From Dehalococcoidia bacterium (lineage in GTDB: Bacteria; Chloroflexota; Dehalococcoidia; Lucifugimonadales; UBA3495), in contig OZ251531.1 of the NCBI GenBank assembly GCA_965243185.1, positions 2,214,532 to 2,278,531 of the forward strand: a stretch of DNA of 64,000 bases, written 5' to 3'. Below are positions 10,753-58,630 of the stretch, one piece after another. Position 1 is the stretch's first letter. Each line of letters opens with the position of its first letter. A program made the position numbers and the translations under genes. The notes under the pieces were generated by a model, which ran no database searches, was not told where the DNA came from, and saw only the letters and a program-made list of their open reading frames with translations.

Positions 10753-10855
10753 TAATGGACGATCGCTAACTCTTGAATCCGGCTGCCCCAAAGCCGGTTG
10801 GCTAATTCTTGGGGATGTGCTACAATGCCCCTAACTTCTGTAGGAGGTGACGCTG

Positions 10856-11509
10856 ATGACTACGCCCGAAGCCGATTTCCGAACCTACTACGACTTCCGT
10901 TGACCCTTCGTGTATAACGCCGCCATGTGGCTGGCGAAGGTGCGCGAAACCACCGGACAGGACATCACGGTCGACTGGCAGCCCTTCTCTTTGGAGCAGG
11001 TCAACAGCGACAACAAGCTGGCCGAAGGGGAGACTTCGGTCAAGTTCTGGGAACTGCCCGGGGCCTTGGACGGCTCGGACCAGACCTTGCTTTCCCACCG
11101 GGCCGGCTTGGCGGCCAAGCGGCAGGGCAAGGAAGCCTTCGAGTCGTTCTTTATGGCCCTGCTGAAACTGCGCCATGAGGAGCGGCGCAGTCTCACCGAC
11201 CCGGCGGTGATGGAGGAAGCCCTAGCCAACTCCGGCATCGACGCGGCCCGGTTCCGGGAGGATTTGGCCGACCCCGACCTGCTGCGGGAGATTGGGGAAA
11301 GCCATACTACCGCCGTCGAGGAATACGGGGCTTTTGGCGTGCCGACCTATGTTTTCCCCAACGGCAGCACGGCCTTTGTCAAGATGCACATCCCCCCGGC
11401 GGAACAGGCGGGCGAGATTTACGAATCGCTGACCCGGGTGATTACCGACGCCCAGCACGTGGGCGAGGTCAAGCGCCCCTCGCCGCCGTGGCCGCACGGC
11501 ATCATCTAG
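10856..11509 (+). CDS. DsbA-like thioredoxin-fold protein with an in-frame TGA (candidate Sec) at 10901-10903
   Basis: AGGAGGTG RBS then ATG 10856. The frame reads MTTPEADFRTYYDFR-TGA-PFVYNAAMW and continues into the 199-aa track ORF. The TGA falls where the family has the first Cys of CPxC. Confidence 0.7.
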
Positions 11510-11524
11510 GCACGGACGGCAGGC

Positions 11525-12496
11525 TTGGCTTTGTCCCGCGACCGGCAGACCATTAAGGAACTGGAATCCCGGCTGGGGCTGAGTTTCCGCGACCAGGGCT
11601 TGCTGCGGCAAGCCCTGGTGCACCGCTCTTATCTTAACGAACAGGGCGGCTCCGCTCTCGATTCCTACGAGCGGATGGAGTTCCTGGGGGACGCCGTTCT
11701 GGAACTGGTGATTTCCAACGAGCTTTACCGCAGCCTGCCCCAAGAGGATGAGGGGACATTGACGAAGGGCCGGGCGGCCCTGGTTTGCCGGGAAAGCCTA
11801 GCGCAAGCCGCCCGCCGTCTGGACTTGGGCGATTATATTGCCTTGGGCCGGGGGGAACGGAGCAGCGGCGGCCCGCAACGGGATTCCATCCTCGAGGAAG
11901 TCTTTGAGGCAATGGTGGCGGCGGTCTATCTCGACCGGGGCTATGACGCCGCCCGTCAGTTCATTATGCAGGCTCTGGAGCCGGAACTGTCGGCCTACTG
12001 TAGCGGGGGACAAACTCCGGAAAACCCCAAGTCTCTGTTGCAGGAAACTCTGCAAGCCCAAGGCCGGGCTACGCCCCGCTACCAGGTATTAGCCATGGAC
12101 GGCCCCGGCCATCAGCCGGTTTTTACCGTGGCGGTTACGGTGGACGGACAAACCTTGGGGAAAGGCAGCGGCGCAAAAAAAGCCGAAGCCGAGCGCGCCG
12201 CCGCCCGGGACGCTTTAGCCCAATACGGCCCGTCCCCGGATAGGCCGGCCGCCGCCCCAACTAACCGCAAAACCGCAGCCAAGGCCACGGAACACCGGGG
12301 CAATTCCGGGAAAAATCAGTCAAACCGCAGCGCAGGATTATGCTCTCCTTCTTTCGACGCAACCGGGACGCCAATCAAGAACGCACCGCCCAAGCTACCC
12401 AACGGAGCCGTAATCAGTGGTTCGGCCGCATCCAGTCCCTTCTCCGCTCCGCTAAACTGGATGAAGCGGTTTGGGAGGAACTCGAGGAAATCCTGA
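11525..12496 (+). CDS. rnc: Ribonuclease III
   Basis: ERMEFLGDAVLE signature and a C-terminal dsRBD (PKSLLQE...GSGAKKAEAERAAA). A long low-complexity tail overlaps ftsY. Confidence 0.85.
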   Translation: MALSRDRQTIKELESRLGLSFRDQGLLRQALVHRSYLNEQGGSALDSYERMEFLGDAVLELVISNELYRSLPQEDEGTLTKGRAALVCRESLAQAARRLDLGDYIALGRGERSSGGPQRDSILEEVFEAMVAAVYLDRGYDAARQFIMQALEPELSAYCSGGQTPENPKSLLQETLQAQGRATPRYQVLAMDGPGHQPVFTVAVTVDGQTLGKGSGAKKAEAERAAARDALAQYGPSPDRPAAAPTNRKTAAKATEHRGNSGKNQSNRSAGLCSPSFDATGTPIKNAPPKLPNGAVISGSAASSPFSAPLNWMKRFGRNSRKS

Positions 12497-13296
12497 TTTC
12501 CGCGGATGTGGGTGTTGATACTTCCCTGCGGATTATCGCCGACCTGAAAGGCCAGGTGCAGGCTGAGCAGATTACCGATGCGGACGCTGTCTTTGCCCGC
12601 TTGAAGGAAATCCTGATTAGGGACTTGGAAGCCGGCGTGGATCCGGCGGCTTGGCTGGACGCCCCCAATCCGGCAGCGCCTTATGTCATCCTGATGGTGG
12701 GCGTCAACGGCGTGGGCAAAACGACCAGCATCGCCAAGCTGGCCTATCACTTTCAGCAGGAGGGCAAAAAGGTTATCCTCGGCGCGGCCGACACTTTCCG
12801 GGCGGCCGCCGAGGAGCAGCTGGAAATCCTGGGCGAGCGAGCCGGGGTAGCGGTAATCAGCCATCAGCCCGGCGCCGACCCGGGGGCCGTGGCTTATGAC
12901 GCTTACCATGCCGGCAAAGCCCGCGGGGCGGATGTGCTGATTGTGGATACGGCCGGCCGGCTGCATACCCGCGCCAACCTGATGGCGGAACTGCAAAAGG
13001 TGCGCCGGGTTATCAACCGGCTCGATGAAACTGCCCCCCATCAAGTTATCCTCACCCTCGACGCTACCACCGGACTGAACGGTTTGAGCCAGGCCAAGGC
13101 TTTTCAAGAAGCGGTGGGCTGCACCGGCATTTTTCTGGCAAAGCTGGACGGCACGGCCCGCGGCGGGATTGCCTTGGCGATTAAGCAGGAACTGCAAGTA
13201 CCCATCCTGTTCATCGGCACCGGGGAGGCTCTGGACGATTTGGCGACTTTTGAACCGGGACAGTTCGTTGATGCCCTGCTGGCTCCGGTTTCCTGA
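12340..13296 (+). CDS. ftsY: Signal recognition particle receptor FtsY
   Basis: GVNGVGKTT, DTAGR and LAKLDGTARGG motifs. Confidence 0.9.
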   Translation: MLSFFRRNRDANQERTAQATQRSRNQWFGRIQSLLRSAKLDEAVWEELEEILISADVGVDTSLRIIADLKGQVQAEQITDADAVFARLKEILIRDLEAGVDPAAWLDAPNPAAPYVILMVGVNGVGKTTSIAKLAYHFQQEGKKVILGAADTFRAAAEEQLEILGERAGVAVISHQPGADPGAVAYDAYHAGKARGADVLIVDTAGRLHTRANLMAELQKVRRVINRLDETAPHQVILTLDATTGLNGLSQAKAFQEAVGCTGIFLAKLDGTARGGIALAIKQELQVPILFIGTGEALDDLATFEPGQFVDALLAPVS

Positions 13297-23821: not shown

Positions 23822-24172
23822 CTACTCCAACGCCGCCGCCAGTGCCTTCAGGTTCGCCCCGATAATCAGCCGGTCGCCCAGCCGGGTTATCGGCCGCCGC
23901 AGCAAGCGCGGCTCCTCCAGAATCAGCCGACGCAGCTCCGCATCGGCCAGCTCCTGCCCGGCCAACCCCAGCTGATTCAGGCTAGGACTCCGCCACGCAA
24001 ACAGCTCCGACAGCGGCGCCAATCCCGCCAGTTCCTCCAACTCCTCCGGCCGCAGCGGCTCCTTGAAATAATCCCGTTCCGCCACCGCGATCCCCTTCTG
24101 CAAGAGCAACTCTCTCGCCTTGCGGCAGGAACTTCAACGCGGCCACCAGTAAAAAGTTGCTTGTTCCCCCAA
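23822..24172 (-). CDS. ArsC/Spx-family thioredoxin-fold protein with an in-frame TGA (candidate Sec) at 24134-24136
   Basis: GGGAGGG RBS then TTG 24172. The frame reads MGEQATFYWWPR-TGA-SSCRKARELLLQKGI and continues into the 95-aa track ORF. The TGA replaces the first Cys of the family CxxC / PRC motif. Confidence 0.7.
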
Positions 24173-28048: not shown

Positions 28049-30910
28049 CTAATCCCCGTTACCGCCCTCCGCCGCCACTTTCACCACCCGCGCCGGCAAA
28101 ATATCCAACCCCGGCACCCGGGACATCGGATCCGGCTCCGTCGAATTCTGCAAATCCACCGCCAGTTGCCCGAACAGAATCGTCGCCGCCACCGTCCCCC
28201 TCGGCCGCGCCGAATCCAGCCGCGCTTGCCCGGCCAGCCGTCCTCCCGGCGTCTGCACTTCCACTGTATCCCCCTCGACAATGCCCCACGCGGCCGCATC
28301 CTCCGGGTTCAACTCCACCACTTCCTCCCGTTCAATGCGGTTGCTACCGCCCGGCCCATCCGCCGTCACCCGGGTATCCCGATCCCGTTGCAGCAGCACC
28401 CGCCCCGGCACAAACCGCGCCGGATAATCCCCATCCACATCCGCCGCGGCCAGCGCCGCCCGGAATTGCGGAATCAGCCAATCCGCCTTGCCCCCGGGAA
28501 AACCATCCTGGTACAGAATCGCCGTCCCGCCGCCGCTTTCCCCCGCCGGCCACTGTAGCCCCCGCTGCTCCTTGCTGACATAAAGCAACTGTGTCGGCTG
28601 CGGACTTTCCAACCCGCTCCGCAAAGTCAACCCCGTTTCCTTTTCCAACCGGGCATAGGATATTCCGGCATAATTGGGAACCACTTCCGCGATTTCATCC
28701 ATCACCGCCCCGGCATCCGGATAGTCAAAGCCGGCCGCGCCCAACCGTTGCCCCAACTGGCAAAACACCCACTGCTCCGGTTTAGCGTTGCCGCTTTGCG
28801 GCTGAAACACCGGCCGCACCCGCTGCACCCGTCGCTCCAAATTGGTATAAGTCCCATCCTTTTCCGCAAAGGATACCCGCGGCAAAACTACCTCCGCCAG
28901 TTGCGCCGGCCGGCTCAGGAAAGTATCCATCACCACCAGAAACTCCAGGTTCTGCAATGCCGCCAACCCGTCCCCCAAGCGGCCGTTCACCAGGTTATAG
29001 CTGTCTCCCACCAGCAGCATTGCCTTGACCGTCCCTTGCCGCGCCGCCGCCGCCATTTGCGGCAAGCCCAAACCGGCCTCCGTTGGCAAAGCGCAGCCCC
29101 ACCGTTCCTCCAGTTCCTGCCGCGCCGGACGTTCCCCCCGCCCGGGTTTCACTCCCGGCAGTAGGTCGTGAACGCAGCCCACATCCACCGCGCCCGCTTC
29201 ATTAGTTCCTTGCGGCAGCGGATAAATCCCTGCCCCCGCCTTGCCCACATTCCCGGTCAGTAACGCCAGGTTCACCAAAGCGTTGACGCAATCCCGCTGC
29301 AAATCCGGGTCGATGTTGTCCAGCGAATAGCAAACCGCGGCCTTATCCGCCTCCCCGAAAAACTCGGCCGCCCGGGCCATTTCCGCCCGCCCCACTCCGG
29401 TAATGGCGGCGATTTCCTCCAGATCCAGGTTGTTCAGGTAGTAATACAGCGTAGCCGGATCCTCGCACCGCTGCTCCACCCATTCCTTATCGACCCGCCC
29501 CTGCTCCACCACTTCCCGCAGTAATCCCCCCAGTAGCAGCAACTCCGTGCCGGGAATCGGCCGCAGCCAGCAGGCGGCGTAGCGGGTCAGCTCTACCTCC
29601 CGGGGGTCAATAACTATCAGCTTCGCCCCGGCTTTCACCGCCCGCTTTATCGGCACCCCCACCACATTGTTGTCCTCGGTCAGGTTGCTGTTGAACACCA
29701 AAATCGCCCCGGCCCGCTCCAAATCCCAAATCGGATTGGTCGCCCACCGGTAACCCAAGGCTTGCTCCAACCCCCCGGTCAATTCCGGCTGCAAGTTGGA
29801 AGTCAAGTCCACATTGTTGGACTGCATCGCCACCCGCGCCAACTTCTGCGCCAGGTAATGCTCCTCCGTAGTCCCGTTGGGCGCTGCCAACAGCCCGAAA
29901 GCCGCTCCCCGGTACTCGGCCAGCCGTTGGGCAATGTAGTCCAACGCCTCCTCCCAGCTGCATTCCGTCAGTTGCCCCTCCCGCCGTAGCAGCGGCGTCT
30001 GCAACCGGTCGCCCCGGTTAATAAACTCCAACCCGAACTTCCCCTTGAAACACCCTTGCCCCCGGTTGGCGGGCGAATTATATTCCGGCACCACCCGAAT
30101 CAGCTGCCCGTCCCCGTTCAGCTCCAAATTCAGCTGACAGCCCACCGGGCAGTGCGGGCAAATCGTCCGTTCCACCCGCCGCGCCTTTTCCCACTTGTGT
30201 TCCCGCTCCACCAACGCCCCTACCGGGCAGACATCAATACACGCCCCGCAAAACTCGCACCCCGACTCCAGTAGCGATGACCCGAAAGAAGTCCCCACCA
30301 ACGCCTTGCCCGACCGTTCGGTGAAACAAATAGCGTCATCCCCCCGGATTTCCTCACACGCCCGCACGCACCGCCCGCAGGTGATGCACAGGTTATAGTC
30401 CCGGTCATAAAAGGGATCCGCCACTTCCAGCGGAATCTGCTTGTATTTATAGTTCAGCGGCGACTCCAGCTCCATCCCCAGATAGCGCACCGTATCCTTG
30501 AACTCGCACCGCTCATTCTTGGGACAGGTAACGCAGCGGTCATTCACCGCCACATGACGCAGGCAAATATCCTGCGGCCCGCAAATGTCAATCCGATGGC
30601 AGGTCAGGCAGCCGTTGGGATGTTCCGCAATCAGCATCTGCATTACCGACCGCCGCAGTTCGTTCACATCCCGCGTCTCGCTGCGAATTCGCATCCCGTC
30701 CGCCGCCGGCAAAGTGCAGGCCGCCGGAAAGCCCCGCCCGCCTTCGACCGCCACCACGCACATTCGGCAGGCCGCGTACGGCTCCATCCCCGGATGGTAG
30801 CACAGATACGGAACATAGATGCCGGCGTCAATGGCCGCTTCCAGGACCATTTTGCCCCGTTCCGTAGTTATCTCCACCCCGTCAATGGCGATGGTAATTT
30901 CCTCAGCCAT
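28049..30910 (-). CDS. nuoG: NuoG-like Fe-S / molybdopterin-oxidoreductase-fold subunit (FdsA architecture, no catalytic Cys/Sec)
   Basis: N-terminal 2Fe-2S motif (CYHPGMEPYAACRMC), 4Fe-4S motifs and CPHCPVGC. At the formate dehydrogenase Cys/Sec-His position the sequence reads NNVDLTSNLQPE. Confidence 0.8.
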   Translation of the reverse strand: MAEEITIAIDGVEITTERGKMVLEAAIDAGIYVPYLCYHPGMEPYAACRMCVVAVEGGRGFPAACTLPAADGMRIRSETRDVNELRRSVMQMLIAEHPNGCLTCHRIDICGPQDICLRHVAVNDRCVTCPKNERCEFKDTVRYLGMELESPLNYKYKQIPLEVADPFYDRDYNLCITCGRCVRACEEIRGDDAICFTERSGKALVGTSFGSSLLESGCEFCGACIDVCPVGALVEREHKWEKARRVERTICPHCPVGCQLNLELNGDGQLIRVVPEYNSPANRGQGCFKGKFGLEFINRGDRLQTPLLRREGQLTECSWEEALDYIAQRLAEYRGAAFGLLAAPNGTTEEHYLAQKLARVAMQSNNVDLTSNLQPELTGGLEQALGYRWATNPIWDLERAGAILVFNSNLTEDNNVVGVPIKRAVKAGAKLIVIDPREVELTRYAACWLRPIPGTELLLLGGLLREVVEQGRVDKEWVEQRCEDPATLYYYLNNLDLEEIAAITGVGRAEMARAAEFFGEADKAAVCYSLDNIDPDLQRDCVNALVNLALLTGNVGKAGAGIYPLPQGTNEAGAVDVGCVHDLLPGVKPGRGERPARQELEERWGCALPTEAGLGLPQMAAAARQGTVKAMLLVGDSYNLVNGRLGDGLAALQNLEFLVVMDTFLSRPAQLAEVVLPRVSFAEKDGTYTNLERRVQRVRPVFQPQSGNAKPEQWVFCQLGQRLGAAGFDYPDAGAVMDEIAEVVPNYAGISYARLEKETGLTLRSGLESPQPTQLLYVSKEQRGLQWPAGESGGGTAILYQDGFPGGKADWLIPQFRAALAAADVDGDYPARFVPGRVLLQRDRDTRVTADGPGGSNRIEREEVVELNPEDAAAWGIVEGDTVEVQTPGGRLAGQARLDSARPRGTVAATILFGQLAVDLQNSTEPDPMSRVPGLDILPARVVKVAAEGGNGD

Positions 30911-30955
30911 TCAATCCTCGCGCAGCCCTTGCCCAATGCTGCTGCTAATCGTCAA

Positions 30956-32680
30956 CTACCGCCGGCTCAGCCGCGGCGTAAAATGCGGCTCCCCGCACCG
31001 GCCGGTCGGACACCGCTTCTCCTCAATATGCGCCGCAAACTCCTCGGGAAAATACCGCAGCGCCGACGCCACCGGGCTGAACCCCAATTGCCCATGCCCG
31101 CACAGCGAACCGGCTTGCATATTCAACCCCACCGACCGCATCAAATCCAAATCCTCCGGGCCGCCCTCCAGCCGTCCAATCCGCTCCAACGCCTCCAGCA
31201 GATGACTCATCCCCATCCGACAGGGAAAGCACTTGCCGCAGGACTCGTACTGGCAAAAGGCAATCAATACCCGCGTCAAATCCACCACGCAGGCATCATC
31301 CCCCGCGGCGATTATCCCCCCGGAACCCAAAATCGCCCCGGCATTGCGAAACACCTCAAAATCCAGCAGCAAATCCGCCGCATCGATCCCCAGCACGCCC
31401 CCCAACGGCCCCCCGGTCTGAATAAACTTCAACTTCCGGCCCGCCGGCGGCCCCCCGGCAATTTCATACAGCACCTCTTGCAGGTTCAACCCCATCGGCA
31501 GCTCCACCATTCCGGTATAATTCAACGCCCCGCTCAGGCACAAAATCACCGTCCCGGTGCTGCGCTCGTGGCCGATGCCCGCAAACCACTCTCCGCCCTT
31601 GGCGATAATCTCCGGCACATACGCCAAAGTTTTGACATTGTTGATATTGGTCGGCTTCCCGAAAACTCCCACTTGCGCCGGAAACGGCGGCCGGTACCGC
31701 GGCATCGACCGCTTCCCCTCAATGGCCTCCATCAACGCCGTTTCCTCCCCGGCAACATAGGAATCCCCGGTTAAAGCCACCTCCAGGTCAAACTGGAACC
31801 CCGACCCCAGAATATCCGCCCCCAGTAGTCCCAACTCGTAGGCTTGCGCCACCGCCGCCTTGGCCCGCTCAATCGGCCCATCGTGCCCGTGCCGAATGAA
31901 AATATACCCGTAGTTGGCCCCGGTAGCGTACCCGGCCAGTATCATCCCCTCCACTACCGTATGCGGGTCGCTCTCCAAAATCCCCTTATCGTTAAACGCC
32001 CCCGGGTCGCCCTCCTCGCAGTTGCACAGAATATACTTGTCCGCCGCCCCGTTATCCGCCAGAAACTTCCACTTAACCCCGGTGGCAAAGGCCGCGCCGC
32101 CGCGCCCCCGCAGCCCCGACGCCGTAACCTCCTCCCTTACCCCCTCCGGCGTCATTGCCGTCAACGCCTGCTGCAAAGCCGCGTAACCCCCGTTAGCCAC
32201 ATACTGGTAAATATCCAGCGGGTCAATCTGCCCGGCATTCCGCAAAGCAATCCGCTGCTCCTTAACCCGCATCGGATGCCGGTTCAAGTCCGGCAGCCCA
32301 ATGCCGCCGCTGTCATCCCCCTCGGGATAAATGCAGCCCAACGCAGCCGCCGCTACCGGTACGCCCCCGACAATATGGGACGCCACAATTTCCTCGGCCA
32401 ATTCCGGGCTGACCTTCCCGTAAAAAACCCGCGCCTGCCCCGGCACGGCCACCTCCACCAACGGCTCCGCAAAGCACAGCCCCAAGCAGCCCACCCGACT
32501 CACCACCGCATCCAAACCCCGCCTTGCCAACGCCGTCTCCAGCGCCGCCGCCGCTTCCTCCGCTCCCGCCGCCTGCCCGCACAACGCCGTCCCCACCCGC
32601 AGCCACGGCCGCCCGCCGGCCGTCAACTCCGTCCAGCGGCTGGCCGCGGCGGCCTGGATTTCCTCAAAAGTGGGGAACAT
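30956..32680 (-). CDS. nuoF: NuoF-like NADH-binding FMN/4Fe-4S subunit with an N-terminal extension
   Basis: GRGGAAFATGVKW FMN/NADH motif and ESCGKCFPCR 4Fe-4S motif. Confidence 0.88.
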   Translation of the reverse strand: MFPTFEEIQAAAASRWTELTAGGRPWLRVGTALCGQAAGAEEAAAALETALARRGLDAVVSRVGCLGLCFAEPLVEVAVPGQARVFYGKVSPELAEEIVASHIVGGVPVAAAALGCIYPEGDDSGGIGLPDLNRHPMRVKEQRIALRNAGQIDPLDIYQYVANGGYAALQQALTAMTPEGVREEVTASGLRGRGGAAFATGVKWKFLADNGAADKYILCNCEEGDPGAFNDKGILESDPHTVVEGMILAGYATGANYGYIFIRHGHDGPIERAKAAVAQAYELGLLGADILGSGFQFDLEVALTGDSYVAGEETALMEAIEGKRSMPRYRPPFPAQVGVFGKPTNINNVKTLAYVPEIIAKGGEWFAGIGHERSTGTVILCLSGALNYTGMVELPMGLNLQEVLYEIAGGPPAGRKLKFIQTGGPLGGVLGIDAADLLLDFEVFRNAGAILGSGGIIAAGDDACVVDLTRVLIAFCQYESCGKCFPCRMGMSHLLEALERIGRLEGGPEDLDLMRSVGLNMQAGSLCGHGQLGFSPVASALRYFPEEFAAHIEEKRCPTGRCGEPHFTPRLSRR

Positions 32681-33284: not shown

Positions 33285-33929
33285 CTACTCCCCCTGCAAA
33301 TACTGCCGCATCGCCGACCGGAAAATATCGTATGGATGCGCCCCGGTGAACATCAAATTCCCCACCACAAAGGTCGGAATCCCCCGGATCCCGTACTGCA
33401 ACGCCTCCTGATACTGCTGCATCACCACCCCCGAATAGGTATGCGCCGCCAAATGCTCCAGCAGCTCCTCGGCATTCAGCGATACCGCCCGCGCCACCTC
33501 CGCCAACGCCGCCGGCTGCCCCAAATCCAGCCCTTCCTCCCAATAGGCTTTATAGGCGGCGTGATGAAACTCCAGAAACTTCCCCTGCTGCTGGGCATAC
33601 TCCGTCGCTTCCAGCGCATACAGCGTATTCGGCGTAACCGCCGGCGGCCGCATAATCAATCCGGCCTCCCGCACCTGCGACCGAATCGGTTCCGCCAATT
33701 CCTCCGCCGTTTCCCCGGCCCGCGGCTGCCGCTGCAAACCCTCCTGCGGCGTATCCGGCCGCAACAGATAAGCCCGCCCCTCCACGGCGATGTTGTAATC
33801 CTGACCCAACTTGTCAACCCGCTCCAGGCCGACATAGCACCAGGGTCAAATATAGTCATACCAGACGATAACCCGCACCGGCTCCGTCCCCTTGCCCCCC
33901 GCCGCCATCCCCTGCGCCGCTTCCTCCAT
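33285..33929 (-). CDS. DsbA/FrnE-like oxidoreductase with an in-frame TGA (candidate Sec) at 33846-33848
   Basis: AGGAGG RBS then ATG 33929. The frame reads ...PVRVIVWYDYI-TGA-PWCYVGLERVDKLGQDY and continues into the 174-aa track ORF. The TGA replaces the first Cys of CPWC. Confidence 0.75.
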
Positions 33930-54938: not shown

Positions 54939-55364
54939 CCGCCGCCGCGCCCTCCCCCAACAGCAAAACCGGCCCCGATTAAAGGAATCAAGGCCGGCTA
55001 ACTCTCTTTGGTTTTGCCCGTCAATAAATACGATGGTACGCATAAAAGTACACCCGCCCGGGGTGTCTTGACTAAAGCCAAGTCCATGCGGGCGGGGAGA
55101 AAATCAATATAATCCTAGCCGGAGGGCAATCCTTTGTCCAGGGGCCGGCCGCCGATTTTCCTGAATTGCCGGAACTAAAAGACCCGCACCATCCCCCAAA
55201 CTCCAAAAGTTTTGAGGGGGTGCGGGGGAACTTTTACAAAAGTTCCCCCGCCGTCTCCCCGGCTGACAACCGTCATCCCCACCCTCTCACCGTCATTCCC
55301 ACGAAAGTGGGAATCCAGAACCCCCAATCCCAAAAACTAATCCGAAAATCCGTCTCAAACCCCC

Positions 55365-55393
55365 TTGACAACTACAAATCCACCCCCCATAAT
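55365..55393 (+). promoter_or_regulatory. Near-consensus sigma70 promoter TTGACA-N17-CATAAT
   Basis: ttgaca actacaaatccaccccc cataat. No ORF with an RBS follows it. Confidence 0.5.
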
Positions 55394-55399
55394 AATACC

Positions 55400-56160
55400 C
55401 GTCGAGGTCAGACCCGGCCCCTGGACGCAGGGACTTAAACGATTCGCTAGCTTACCGTTGCTTTACCGCCACAGCGCGCTGTGGGCGTCCGCCCAGCCCT
55501 AACCGGCAACGCGGCCGCCTCAACTCCTCCCCCGGGGAAAACGGCCCAGGAACCCGTATTCCCCAACCGGAGCGAACGGAAAACGGCAAATCCCAATCGC
55601 CGCCAAACCGCCGCCCCATCCTGATAGGAGTTCGAGCTTAGGGTTGACTGGAGCGTGGTCAACCAACGGTAGCCGGACTGGGCCAACCCGCCGGAATGGC
55701 CACCATACCAACCGGCGTCAGTAGCCAATTCAAGGTACAGCTGCCGTAATCGGCAGTCTGGTCGGGCATTACCGGAATGTGCAGCAAGGTATCCAACCGG
55801 CGTAGCAACCCAAATGACCAGCCTGCCAACCACCTTCCGCGACGGGCGGAACCCCTAGGTACCCAGGGGTTCCGCCAATACCGCTTTGCAATTTCTCCCC
55901 ATCCCCTTTCCCCCAACAACCGGCCGAAAAACACCGCCATCCCGGCCGTAACCGGAATGGCGGGCATCCATACTAAACGGTATGACCTCAGCCCAAATGC
56001 CGGATATTCTAATTCCGGTGCCGGGTTGTTTTGTAACCCATTGCGAACGGCACGAGGGAACCGTTGGCATAGTCCTCAGTCGCAAAATCGAGAGGTAGCA
56101 AGTGCCGGTCAACACCAGTTGGGGCCGGGAAAGAGTCAATGACTGGCCCCCTGTTACCAA
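55400..56160 (+). other. ORF-free, hairpin- and repeat-rich region (candidate large ncRNA or decayed element; strand uncertain)
   Basis: Only short overlapping ORFs in all six frames. 12-bp perfect stem at 55845-55876. ccggaatg...ccaaccggcgt units recur 81 nt apart (55691 and 55772). Confidence 0.3.
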
Positions 56161-56169
56161 CCTACGCTG

Positions 56170-56584
56170 CGGTTTCAGCCGGGGCTTATCGTACAGGAGT
56201 ATCTAATTCAGGCACTTAAAGAGCGTTACCCCCAACACCCGGTAGTCCAGATTAACGGCGGTATGTCCTTGGGCGAGAAGCGGCGAGGGCATTAACCTGC
56301 ACCAAAATTGCCATGTGCTGGTCAACTATGACTTGCCGTGGAACCCCAGCCGCTTGGTGCAAAGGGCCGGCCGGCTTTACCGCTATGGTCAGACCCAGCG
56401 GGTAATCGTCTTTAACCTGATGGCGGATGACGGGTTTGACAATCGGGCTATCAGCTTGATGTTGGAGCGGGTTGACCGGATTGCCGCCGCTCTGCGGCCG
56501 GTAAGCTCCGAGGTCACTTTCCAAAAGTTCGGCGACGCTGATGTAATCCTTTCCTGGAGGGCGTTCTGCCGTATAAAGGCGTAG
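56170..56584 (+). pseudogene. SNF2-family helicase C-terminal remnant (N-terminally truncated, internal deletion/frameshift near 56285)
   Basis: Frame 1 reads ...VQINGGMSLGEKRRGH*. The +1 frame continues GEGINLHQNCHVLVNYDLPWNPSRLVQRAGRLYRYGQ (helicase motifs V-VI). Confidence 0.7.
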
Positions 56585-56783
56585 AAATCAGGAACCGGTT
56601 GTACGGCGGCAAAGTGCTGGAACTGGAGTTGCCACATGATATGCGGGGAGCCTATTCGGAGTTTCCGGCCAGAGCAACGTTAGTTCGAGTGTCGGCAGAC
56701 CGGCAGTGTACTGCCCTGCGACCCTAACGACATCGTGCGTATGGCATCGGCAACCATCACTGCCCCTTAACTGGTTGCCCCCT

Positions 56784-56819
56784 AAGGAAAACCGGGGCCG
56801 GTGAAGTTGCCCGCCCCGG
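56784..56819 (-). terminator. Candidate rho-independent terminator
   Basis: On the minus strand, the CCGGGGC/GCCCCGG stem is followed by TTTTCCTT, 60 nt after the 56880 stop. Confidence 0.4.
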
Positions 56820-56879
56820 CATCATTATTTCCCGGCGCCGCTTCCGCGCCATCCGGGTTATTTGCTGACCGCCGCTCCG

Positions 56880-57719
56880 CTAATACCCGGCAAAGGCGGT
56901 GGTAAAGAGCAAGGCTTTTTCCAGCGGGCCGTCAATTTCCAGTTGGGCGGTGGCCGGCGCGCCGCCGCTGAGGTCGAGGCGGCCGTAGGTCAGCAGCACA
57001 TAGGCGCTGGCGTTGCCGCGAAAGGTTACATCGGCCGGCGTATCTGCTGCGTCCTCAATGGTGAAACTATCCCCAGCCAAGACCACATCTTGGCGGCGGG
57101 CGGCAGACCCGGAAACCTCAAAGCGGAAACGGGCCGATTCTGCCACCGGGGTAAAGCAGGCGTTCAGCCAACGGTGGGTCAGGGACATTATGGCGGCGGC
57201 CGCCCCCTCGGAGATTTCCGCCGCCGGGTCGAGGGCAGAACGCAAGTCCCAGCCGTGAATGGCGATTTCCTGAATGCGGCGGGCGATGTTTTCGTGGACG
57301 GGAATGATGCCGCGGCGGTGGAAAGAGGGCTTTCCCCAATCCTCCCCTTGCAGCGCGCCGGCGGCGGCCGCCAAGCGGCCGGAGGCGGCATCATAGGCCG
57401 CCAGCAGTTCCCGGGGCGTCTGCTCGCCCCGGTAGGCAATGGCCCGTTCCGCCGTCATTTGGGAGGCCCGCTCCCCGGCGTCAAGGAGCCGCTGCCCCGG
57501 CGGCGGGCTGGGGTCGCCGGCTTTAGCCCGGGTCAAAGCTACCGCCGCGCCGTCCGCGCCCTGGGTCAAATGGGCGACCACATCGGAGATAGTCCAGTCG
57601 GTGCAGGCGCTTTCCCGCGTCCACCAGTCCGCAGGAATAACCGACAGCGCCCCGCTCAGAAAGGCGGATTCGTGGCGCAGCAGGGCAATGGAGCTTTCCA
57701 TTTCCGGTAGTTCGGGCAT
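56880..57719 (-). CDS. DinB-like / mycothiol-maleylpyruvate-isomerase N-terminal-domain family protein
   Basis: N-terminal four-helix DinB-type segment with WTISDVVAHL. Start set at MPELPEM. Confidence 0.6.
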   Translation of the reverse strand: MPELPEMESSIALLRHESAFLSGALSVIPADWWTRESACTDWTISDVVAHLTQGADGAAVALTRAKAGDPSPPPGQRLLDAGERASQMTAERAIAYRGEQTPRELLAAYDAASGRLAAAAGALQGEDWGKPSFHRRGIIPVHENIARRIQEIAIHGWDLRSALDPAAEISEGAAAAIMSLTHRWLNACFTPVAESARFRFEVSGSAARRQDVVLAGDSFTIEDAADTPADVTFRGNASAYVLLTYGRLDLSGGAPATAQLEIDGPLEKALLFTTAFAGY

Positions 57720-57724
57720 TGTTT

Positions 57725-58630
57725 TTACTCCTTTGTTGATTTCGTTTGTTCCTGTACCCACTGCCAGGTTGCCGTCAAACCGGCGCGCAAATCCACTTCC
57801 GGCTGCCAGTCCAGGCATTGTTTAGCCCGGCGGATGTCCGGGCGGCGCTGTCGAGGTTCGCCGGCCCGGGGCGGCAGCCAAGCAATTTCCGCCGTTATGC
57901 CGGTTACTTCCTGGAGCCGGGCTACCAGTTCCAAGATGGTCAGTTCGGCGGGATTGCCCAGGTTGACCGGTTCGCTTACTTCCGAGTTCATCAGCTTAAT
58001 CAGCCCGCGTACCAAGTCAGAAATGTAGCAGAAGGAGCGGGTTTGCGTACCAGGCGGCACCAGCGGCAGGGGTTGGCCTTTGACCAAGGCATCCATAAAG
58101 GCGGGAATGACCCGCCCGTCATCCAGCCGCATCCCCGGCCCGTAGGTGTTGAAAATGCGGGCGGTGCGGGTTTCAATGCGGTGGGAAACCAGGGTAAGCA
58201 GCGTTTCGGCGGCCCGCTTGCCTTCGTCGTAGCAGGCCCGGGGGCCACGGCAGTCCACATTGCCCCAATAATCCTCCCGCTGCGGATGCTCCAAAGGGTC
58301 GCCGTAAATCTCCGAAGTGGAAGCCAGCAGCAGGCGGGCTTGCTTGCGGTCGGCTAACTCGGTCAGCAGCCGGGTGCCGAATACGGCGGCGTTGAAAGTG
58401 TCGAGGGGGTCGCGGCTATATTCAACCGGGGAAGCCGGACAAGCCAGATGATAAATCTGTTCGACCGGCCCCATTCCATCAAAATCGGCGATGGCGGCTT
58501 GGGTCAAATCCAGTTGCCAATCCCCGCCGGGGCGGCGGTCGAGGGCAATAACCGACTGACCGCCCGCCCGCAGGGCATTTACCAGGTGCTGGCCGATAAA
58601 GCCGGCGGCGCCGGTTACCAGGAGGGACAT
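57725..58630 (-). CDS. UDP-glucuronate decarboxylase (UDP-xylose synthase)-type SDR
   Basis: VTGAAGFIG Rossmann motif and catalytic YDEGKR; 301 aa. Confidence 0.8.
   Translation of the reverse strand: MSLLVTGAAGFIGQHLVNALRAGGQSVIALDRRPGGDWQLDLTQAAIADFDGMGPVEQIYHLACPASPVEYSRDPLDTFNAAVFGTRLLTELADRKQARLLLASTSEIYGDPLEHPQREDYWGNVDCRGPRACYDEGKRAAETLLTLVSHRIETRTARIFNTYGPGMRLDDGRVIPAFMDALVKGQPLPLVPPGTQTRSFCYISDLVRGLIKLMNSEVSEPVNLGNPAELTILELVARLQEVTGITAEIAWLPPRAGEPRQRRPDIRRAKQCLDWQPEVDLRAGLTATWQWVQEQTKSTKE

Follow-up and report, generated by a model that had tools for sequence, protein, structure and literature searches.

Near its 5' end, a DsbA-like gene of a Dehalococcoidia bacterium is crossed by an in-frame TGA codon, and the question arises whether this codon stops translation or is read as selenocysteine (Sec). 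The gene lies at positions 10856-11509 of a stretch of 64,000 nucleotides from contig OZ251531.1, which was analysed as a whole and is referred to as the window. Based on the reading frame, its conservation and a hairpin downstream of the codon, we suggest that 10856-11509 is very probably a genuine selenoprotein gene. We also regard as highly probable the complete reading, in which the product would be a cytoplasmic DsbA-like protein of 217 residues, with UGA as codon 16 specifying Sec and being decoded via a stem-loop within the coding sequence (CDS).

One reading frame across a conserved TGA codon

Between the ATG at 10856 and the TGA there are 15 sense codons, which encode MTTPEADFRTYYDFR, and the translation reads MTTPEADFRTYYDFR*PFVYNAAMW. 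Past the TGA the frame continues as PFVYNAAMWLAKV... and remains open to the TAG at 11507-11509. The gene layout of the original prediction (ribosome-binding site, ATG 10856 and in-frame TGA; Table 1) is therefore borne out by the sequence and its translation.

With U replaced by C, the full-length product matched the Pfam family DSBA (PF01323) with 71.2 bits, against a cut-off (gathering score) of 25.6 bits, over residues 11-173 and profile positions 5-177, i.e. across the TGA. The annotated product of 194 amino acids (10925-11509) reached 52.4 bits and covered profile positions 25-177 only. As its match begins no earlier than profile position 25, the annotated product lacks strand beta1 and the active site, which is what had been claimed of the annotated open reading frame (ORF).

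A scan of one genome per species of the Genome Taxonomy Database (GTDB) found 128 relatives, and the best 80 were fetched, all of them species-level metagenome-assembled genomes of Dehalococcoidia, Chloroflexota or SAR202. Together with the window and seven further contigs, namely six independent assemblies of the window's gene (L001-L006) and one 92%-identical relative, these make up 88 sequences. TGA occupies the Sec codon in all 88 and is identical in the six independent assemblies. A start codon stands about 15 codons 5' of the TGA in all 80 species loci, mostly with a GGAGG-like site before it; in most of the orthologous loci, GG or RR is encoded just 5' of the start, which is consistent with a ribosome-binding site of the GGAGG type. 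A sequencing error is ruled out by the six independent assemblies and a pseudogene by the conservation in 80 species; both had been judged unlikely beforehand, and this judgement holds.

The codons on either side of the TGA vary in the manner expected of a protein. In the 68 distinct orthologous sequences, the entropy sums for codon positions 1, 2 and 3 were 2.76, 3.29 and 9.46 in the nine codons 5' of the TGA, and 1.66, 1.06 and 6.93 in the codons 3' of it. As the variation falls mostly on third codon positions, protein-level selection acts in one frame on both sides of the TGA, whose flanks are conserved as YYDFR-U-PFVYNA. A frameshift is ruled out, the frame being the same on both sides.

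Among the hits obtained from 5.8 billion proteins, most are calls of 189-197 amino acids that begin with MYNAA... or MWLA..., i.e. they are cut just after the TGA. A minority of the hits are full-length (201-210 amino acids) and have Cys precisely where the TGA stands (F-Y-D-F-R-C-P-F-V-Y-N-A); aligned end to end, 11 full-length homologues of 201-210 amino acids have Cys there. The Cys codon is TGT in locus L088 and TGC in locus L089. L088, which encodes the Cys form P0035, is syntenic with the window (CCA-adding enzyme on the opposite strand, DsbA-like gene, rnc, ftsY, DUF2298, PMT_2), and because its gene order is the same we consider it a true orthologue carrying TGT. The alignment of the full-length translation with its homologues, which had been proposed as a check, was thus carried out, and orthologues have either TGA or Cys at that codon.

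The gene rnc lies 3' of the DsbA-like gene on the same strand in 81 of the 83 related loci, including the Cys orthologue. The order DsbA-like gene, rnc within approximately 16 nt and then ftsY was observed both in the window (11525-13296) and in loci L008-L088.

Were the TGA a real stop, the functional gene would be the truncated ORF starting from GTG 10910 or ATG 10925, or a pseudogene, and the 15 upstream codons would be an untranslated leader. Every public gene call does use the truncated model, and the truncated product still scores above the Pfam DSBA threshold. However, such a product would be devoid of beta1 and of its sole catalytic residue, and the supposed leader is conserved as protein, with synonymous variation among the 68 distinct sequences. 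In addition, 80 species have retained both the TGA and, about 15 codons 5' of it, a start that usually has a ribosome-binding site, whereas a pseudogene would decay, and the Cys orthologues are contiguous proteins of 210 amino acids. We therefore consider termination at this codon extremely unlikely.

The public records that we found are all cut at the UGA, which leaves a product without the active site. The exact truncated product of 194 amino acids is on record on 9 contigs, and the complete public calls of Sec forms that were examined are truncated as well (172-194 amino acids). Where names are given, they are 'DsbA family protein', 'predicted DsbA family dithiol-disulfide isomerase' or 'hypothetical protein'. 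No NCBIfam model matches the window protein, and as none covers the family, the annotation error will spread across SAR202 genomes.

A covarying hairpin downstream of the UGA

The RNA that follows the UGA forms a hairpin, which begins 15 nt after the codon and has its loop 21 nt after it. It had been folded by hand in the original prediction, with a bulged U and an AUGU loop at 10918-10936, and ViennaRNA reproduced it as 7 bp with U10932 bulged (3 bp, bulge, 4 bp). The hairpin tops a longer stem-loop (Table 1), in whose lower stem only the pairing of 10913-10915 with 10940-10942 is kept across species. Minimum free energies were -27.3 kcal/mol (71 nt) and -16.6 kcal/mol (45 nt).

Base pairs were counted in an ungapped alignment of 67 distinct orthologues, with the window hairpin as the named structure. 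Paired cells amounted to 88%, versus 27-57% when the 3' partners were slid by 1-3 columns. The first pair, 10918-10936, is C-G in 38 orthologues, U-A in 27 and unpaired in 2, and both of its columns fall on third codon positions with synonymous exchanges (AAC/AAT for Asn, paired with GCG/GCA for Ala or TCG for Ser). Mapped by parsimony onto a neighbour-joining tree of the remaining protein sequence, this pair needs at least 5 state changes, so that its double changes arose several times. For pair 10922-10931, 58 orthologues have G-C and 9 have A-U; of the lower pairs, 17-44 and 18-43 are kept in 67/67, and 16-45 is broken in 18/67. The observed covariation score was attained by none of 500 shuffles. 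The significance of the hairpin comes from these comparative data and not from its single-sequence energy.

The register of the stem is not the same throughout the family. Approximately one third of the sequences use a shifted register, in which the 'bulged' U pairs with codon 22 where this is GCA or GCG; the AAC...UUG variants have a loop of 5 nt. The U is accordingly paired with A or G in about a third of the orthologues, i.e. the bulge is not conserved. The codon within the loop is GTG in 33 of the 68 distinct sequences, which makes the loop GUGU, and CGG in one.

In the Cys forms the hairpin is degraded. Sec-form hairpins have a mean energy of -9.7 kcal/mol (range -11.4 to -7.7; 24 distinct), while those of two Cys forms are weaker (-5.4 and -7.0 kcal/mol). 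The stem-forming codons are changed in the latter, from A-A-M-W-L-A to A-T-M-W-L-E or A-A-T-V-L-A.

The published model of the bacterial selenocysteine insertion sequence (SECIS) has a loop of 3-9 nt, an upper stem of 4-16 bp, G in the first two loop positions, a spacing of 16-37 nt and a free energy of at most -7.5 kcal/mol (PMC13188914, Fig. 2A). The window element agrees with three of these four published criteria: loop size (4 nt) together with the upper stem (7 bp, one bulge), spacing (21 nt) and free energy. The element of Escherichia coli fdhF resembles it in being a stem-loop of the CDS that closely follows the UGA and has G-U in a small apical loop. In the fdhF element the bulged U (U17) is on the 5' side, in contrast to the window's U, which is found on the 3' side and lacks conservation; moreover, the loop G is third in the window and the two elements share no sequence similarity. 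The match to bacterial SECIS elements that had been claimed stands as regards placement and spacing, but in the bulged U and the GU loop the resemblance is looser than had been proposed.

The position of the loop gives rise to another explanation, namely that there are two translation units, in which a leader peptide of 15 codons ends at the TGA and regulates, via the hairpin, re-initiation at ATG 10925. In its favour, the apical loop contains the very ATG that gene callers choose, and regulation through a structured start region is common. On the other hand, the leader matches strand beta1 of a DsbA fold, to which the remaining protein is joined without a break in Cys orthologues, no ribosome-binding site precedes 10925, and the loop codon is often not ATG at all, as seen from the GTG and CGG variants. 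The probability of such an arrangement appears to us close to negligible.

Decoding context and other readings of the UGA

Directly 5' of the UGA stands a CGT (Arg) codon, which is present in 68 of the 68 distinct orthologous sequences, yet accounts for 5.2% of the Arg codons in window genes. This invariance points to a constraint at the nucleotide level. In two further window genes with an in-frame TGA (see below), the preceding codon is CGT in the ArsC-like gene (24137-24139, minus strand) and ATT in the FrnE-like gene (33849-33851, minus strand), so U is found at position -1 in all three genes. A U before the UGA may represent a lineage-specific decoding context.

The 39 confidently coding genes of the window end with TAG (26), TGA (7) or TAA (6). 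A global reassignment of UGA is ruled out, since TGA serves as the stop in 7 of these 39 genes. The G+C content of the window is 61%, and at this value TGA is usually the dominant stop codon. The avoidance of TGA stops might go with a heavy use of Sec.

The original prediction had also mentioned two more window genes of the same pattern, and both were identified by a scan for read-through ORFs combined with Pfam (Table 1). The FrnE/DsbA-like gene starts with ATG (33929-33927) preceded by CAGGAGG; with U changed to C, its product matches Pfam DSBA with E = 9e-35 over profile positions 2-190, and a hairpin loop GAG begins 21 nt after its UGA. The ArsC/Spx-like gene starts with TTG (24172-24170) after GGGAGGGA. 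Read-through of the TGA is needed for its Pfam ArsC match (E = 6e-15) to span profile positions 1-76; the annotated ORF of 95 amino acids starts at profile position 19. The UGA is followed at 19 nt by a hairpin loop, GAGAG. In all three window genes the UGA replaces the redox Cys of a thioredoxin-fold family.

It might be argued that the UGA is translated, but not as Sec, either by near-cognate read-through (with Trp, Cys or Arg) or through a lineage-wide reassignment. One database entry, P0011, indeed shows W at the TGA position, presumably because the gene caller used a table in which UGA encodes Trp. Moreover, the Sec machinery is not among the genes of the window: neither selA, selB, selD nor a tRNA-Sec was detected within the 64 kb by Pfam, Rfam and ARAGORN, the last of which found no tRNA of any kind there. 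Against these two points stand the use of TGA as a stop in window genes, and the alternative residue in orthologues, which is always Cys and never Trp or Gly. The covarying hairpin, too, occurs at SECIS distance together with the TGA and is degraded in Cys forms, and the UGA takes the redox Cys position in each of the three window cases. Finally, related Dehalococcoidia are catalogued as Sec users: in BSepDB, which collects species with a Sec pathway, 49 selenoprotein genes are assigned to Dehalococcoidia bacterium UBA1141 (PMC13326102), and the locus obtained from the UBA1141 genome (L078) has the TGA orthologue. Translation of the UGA as another amino acid is thus very unlikely in our opinion.

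The machinery missing from the window is one of several observations that weigh against decoding as Sec. No SECIS or credible Rfam match was obtained, whether the whole window was searched at the gathering threshold or 10880-10980 under permissive settings. As a single sequence, the hairpin folds with modest significance (z = -2.57 for 71 nt, with 5 of 200 shuffles folding as well; z = -1.58 for 45 nt). RNAalifold, applied to the 67 orthologues, missed it and gave a poor consensus of -1.85 kcal/mol, because clades use shifted stem registers. The window loop AUGU has its G in the third position, outside the consensus, into which the GUGU orthologues (33/68) do fit. The Cys-form hairpin control consists of three DNA sequences, and a metagenome scan for more gave one locus. 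Furthermore, the evidence for all members of the family is based on sequences and models, and according to a review functional data do not exist for DR2335 (PMC8945050), the Deinococcus radiodurans protein with the closest solved structure; our literature searches on 7DK9/DR2335 found no functional study either.

If the UGA is decoded as Sec, as we propose, the stem-loop at 10907-48 (apical part 10918-36) would recruit SelB with Sec-tRNA(Sec), in competition with release factor 2, and selenium would be incorporated at residue 16.

Table 1. Features of the candidate selenoprotein gene and of further genes of the window
Feature	Position	Strand	Remarks
Full CDS, putative DsbA-like selenoprotein gene	10856..11509	+	217 residues, predicted Sec = residue 16, stop TAG 11507-11509
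Ribosome-binding site AGGAGGTG	10842..10849	+	6 nt 5' of ATG 10856-10858; read from sequence
Invariant CGT (Arg) codon	10898..10900	+	directly 5' of UGA
In-frame TGA, probable Sec codon (motif D-F-R-U-P-F-V)	10901..10903	+	
Whole stem-loop	10907..10948	+	lower stem 10907-10915 with 10940-10948
Apical hairpin, candidate SECIS	10918..10936	+	5' arm 10918-10924, loop AUGU 10925-10928, 3' arm 10929-10936
ATG, probable false start of gene callers	10925..10927	+	inside the apical loop of the candidate SECIS
rnc (RNase III gene)	11525..12496	+	16 nt 3' of DsbA-like gene, then ftsY; Pfam labels
FrnE/DsbA-like gene, candidate selenoprotein 2	33285-33929	-	TGA 33846-33848; VWYDYI-U-PWCYVG (U-P-W-C)
ArsC/Spx-like gene, candidate selenoprotein 3	23822-24172	-	TGA 24134-24136; FYWWPR-U-SSCRKA (U-S-S-C)

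Elsewhere in the window, the minus strand at 28049-32680 encodes a molybdopterin oxidoreductase of 953 amino acids with NuoG-type Fe-S domains (formate-dehydrogenase-like), which has no in-frame TGA and adjoins a NuoF-like protein of 574 amino acids. A stretch of approximately 1.8 kb (~55050-56860) is without a confident ORF and has a slightly lower G+C content (0.56-0.60); it includes, at 56315-56584 on the plus strand, an isolated C-terminal fragment of an SNF2-type helicase, a candidate recognised by eye. Decay of a gene, or a mobile element of which only a remnant is left, may account for this stretch.

Protein family, chemistry and known relatives

The fold was modelled with AlphaFold on the Cys homologue P0012, which is 68% identical to the window protein. 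The model (predicted local distance difference test score, pLDDT, 89.7; predicted template-modelling score, pTM, 0.86) has Cys14 between beta1 (6-10) and alpha1 (15-29), i.e. at the canonical position of the thioredoxin-fold nucleophile. Together with the DSBA match spanning the TGA, this agrees with the active-site position that had been assigned to the codon.

The full-length relatives examined are single-Cys proteins with the motifs D-x-x-C-P-[YFW] and C-P-[YFW]-[VAS], apart from one C-S-Y-V (P0214), and have no second Cys. The single-Sec site U-P-F-V put forward for the window protein is therefore in line with its family, and the C-x-x-C (or U-x-x-C) motif of classical DsbA/FrnE proteins is absent. 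By inspection we found no signal peptide, a feature of classical periplasmic DsbA: the N-terminal residues MTTPEADFRTYYDFR are polar and lead directly into beta1, and the protein would accordingly be located in the cytoplasm. An exhaustive HMMER search of clusters at 50% identity gave 583 hits at E <= 1e-3 and 29 at E <= 1e-30.

Sec16 would be situated at the N-terminus of helix alpha1, directly after beta1, where DsbA, FrnE and Rv2466c have their nucleophilic Cys. Its selenolate might attack a disulfide or another oxidised or electrophilic substrate, forming a selenenyl-sulfide intermediate with a low-molecular-weight thiol or a partner protein, which an external thiol would then resolve. Such a one-residue (monothiol-type) cycle seems the most likely chemistry, because there is no second (resolving) Cys in U-P-F-V and its relatives; nevertheless, we put it forward tentatively, as a possibility that at best falls short of being probable.

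Three relatives of about 415 amino acids (P0185, P0208 and P0258) carry an N-terminal dephospho-CoA kinase domain (CoaE, 3e-48) fused to a single-Cys DsbA-like domain. The 150 best relatives contain no crotonase domain, and fusions to dephospho-CoA kinase were the only ones seen. These fusions are a weak lead towards the thiol chemistry of coenzyme A (CoA).

The window also encodes, at 56880-57818 on the minus strand, a protein with a DinB/MDMPI_N domain (mycothiol maleylpyruvate isomerase N-terminal domain, 5e-18). Enzymes of this superfamily often depend on a low-molecular-weight thiol, and the gene may bear on the question of which thiol the organism uses.

The gene appears to be a new, or at most sparsely documented, member of the known DsbA-like selenoproteins, and a literature search combining SAR202 with selenoprotein found no paper. 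One could go further and see here an undescribed family, i.e. a single-selenol DsbA-like protein of the DR2335 type that is kept in every SAR202-type Dehalococcoidia species sampled, is fixed with rnc-ftsY and is decoded by a lineage-specific signal off the SECIS consensus (G-U at loop positions 3-4, invariant rare CGU, U at -1); we think this rather unlikely. If it were true, the CoaE fusions would point to CoA-linked thiol chemistry, e.g. protein de-CoAlation or the reduction of CoA mixed disulfides.

A single-selenol DsbA-like enzyme present in 80 species would extend the redox repertoire of a lineage that is abundant in the ocean, is associated with sponges and is already catalogued as rich in selenoproteins. 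The window gene and L088 might also constitute a clean natural pair of Sec and Cys orthologues, helpful in testing what selenium contributes to a one-residue site of the thioredoxin fold.

Among known systems, the closest solved structure is that of DR2335 (PDB 7DK9; C24S mutant 7DKA), with a sequence match of E = 4e-17 and a template-modelling (TM) score of 0.78. It is likewise a cytoplasmic DsbA-like domain, and its single conserved Cys, in F-D-F-L-C-P-Y-A, is aligned with the UGA; it differs in having Cys instead of Sec and is ~26-28% identical to the window protein. The structural matches that follow are Rv2466c and then YjbH, kappa-class glutathione transferases, 2-hydroxychromene-2-carboxylate isomerase, DsbM and FrnE.

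Rv2466c, the mycothiol-dependent reductase of Mycobacterium tuberculosis (4ZIL and 4NXI, TM ~0.7), is also a cytoplasmic DsbA-like protein and works with a low-molecular-weight thiol. The window protein matches the Rv2466c-like Pfam family PF22234 with 38.3 bits (cut-off 27; positions 2-180 of 180). Taken over the whole family this match is borderline, since P0012 reaches 25 bits and thus stays below the cut-off. In contrast to the dithiol motif C-P-W-C of Rv2466c, the window protein has a single predicted Sec only.

Kappa-class glutathione transferases and 2-hydroxychromene-2-carboxylate isomerases share the DsbA-like fold and a single catalytic residue at the same place, which in these enzymes lies in a motif of the D-x-x-S-P type. 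However, that residue is Ser and not Cys or Sec, the TM scores are 0.58-0.60 and there is no match at the sequence level.

As to selenoproteins, our results do not overturn current understanding, since DsbA-like selenoproteins were described as early as 2005 and the literature already contains Dehalococcoidia that are rich in selenoproteins. DsbA-like selenoproteins with UxxC were reported from the Sargasso Sea by Zhang, Fomenko and Gladyshev (2005; PMC1088965) and are among the top bacterial selenoprotein families (PMC5029168). A 2026 review distinguishes 'DsbA-like protein form 1', with UxxC, from 'DsbA-like protein form 2', with DxxUP, for which it gives MDP6049977.1 as an example, citing Peng et al. 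2016 (PMC13188914). The window gene is similar to form 1 in its PF01323 fold, the predicted Sec in place of the N-terminal active-site Cys, the candidate SECIS just 3' within the CDS and the marine bacterial hosts; on the other hand, it has no resolving Cys (U-P-F-V) and belongs to another, single-Cys subfamily. Form 1 is fitted instead by the FrnE-like gene of the window at 33285-33929 (U-P-W-C). With form 2, compared by motif and description only, the DsbA-like gene at 10856-11509 shares the PF01323 fold and a single (here predicted) Sec, and its D-F-R-U-P fits the DxxUP motif.

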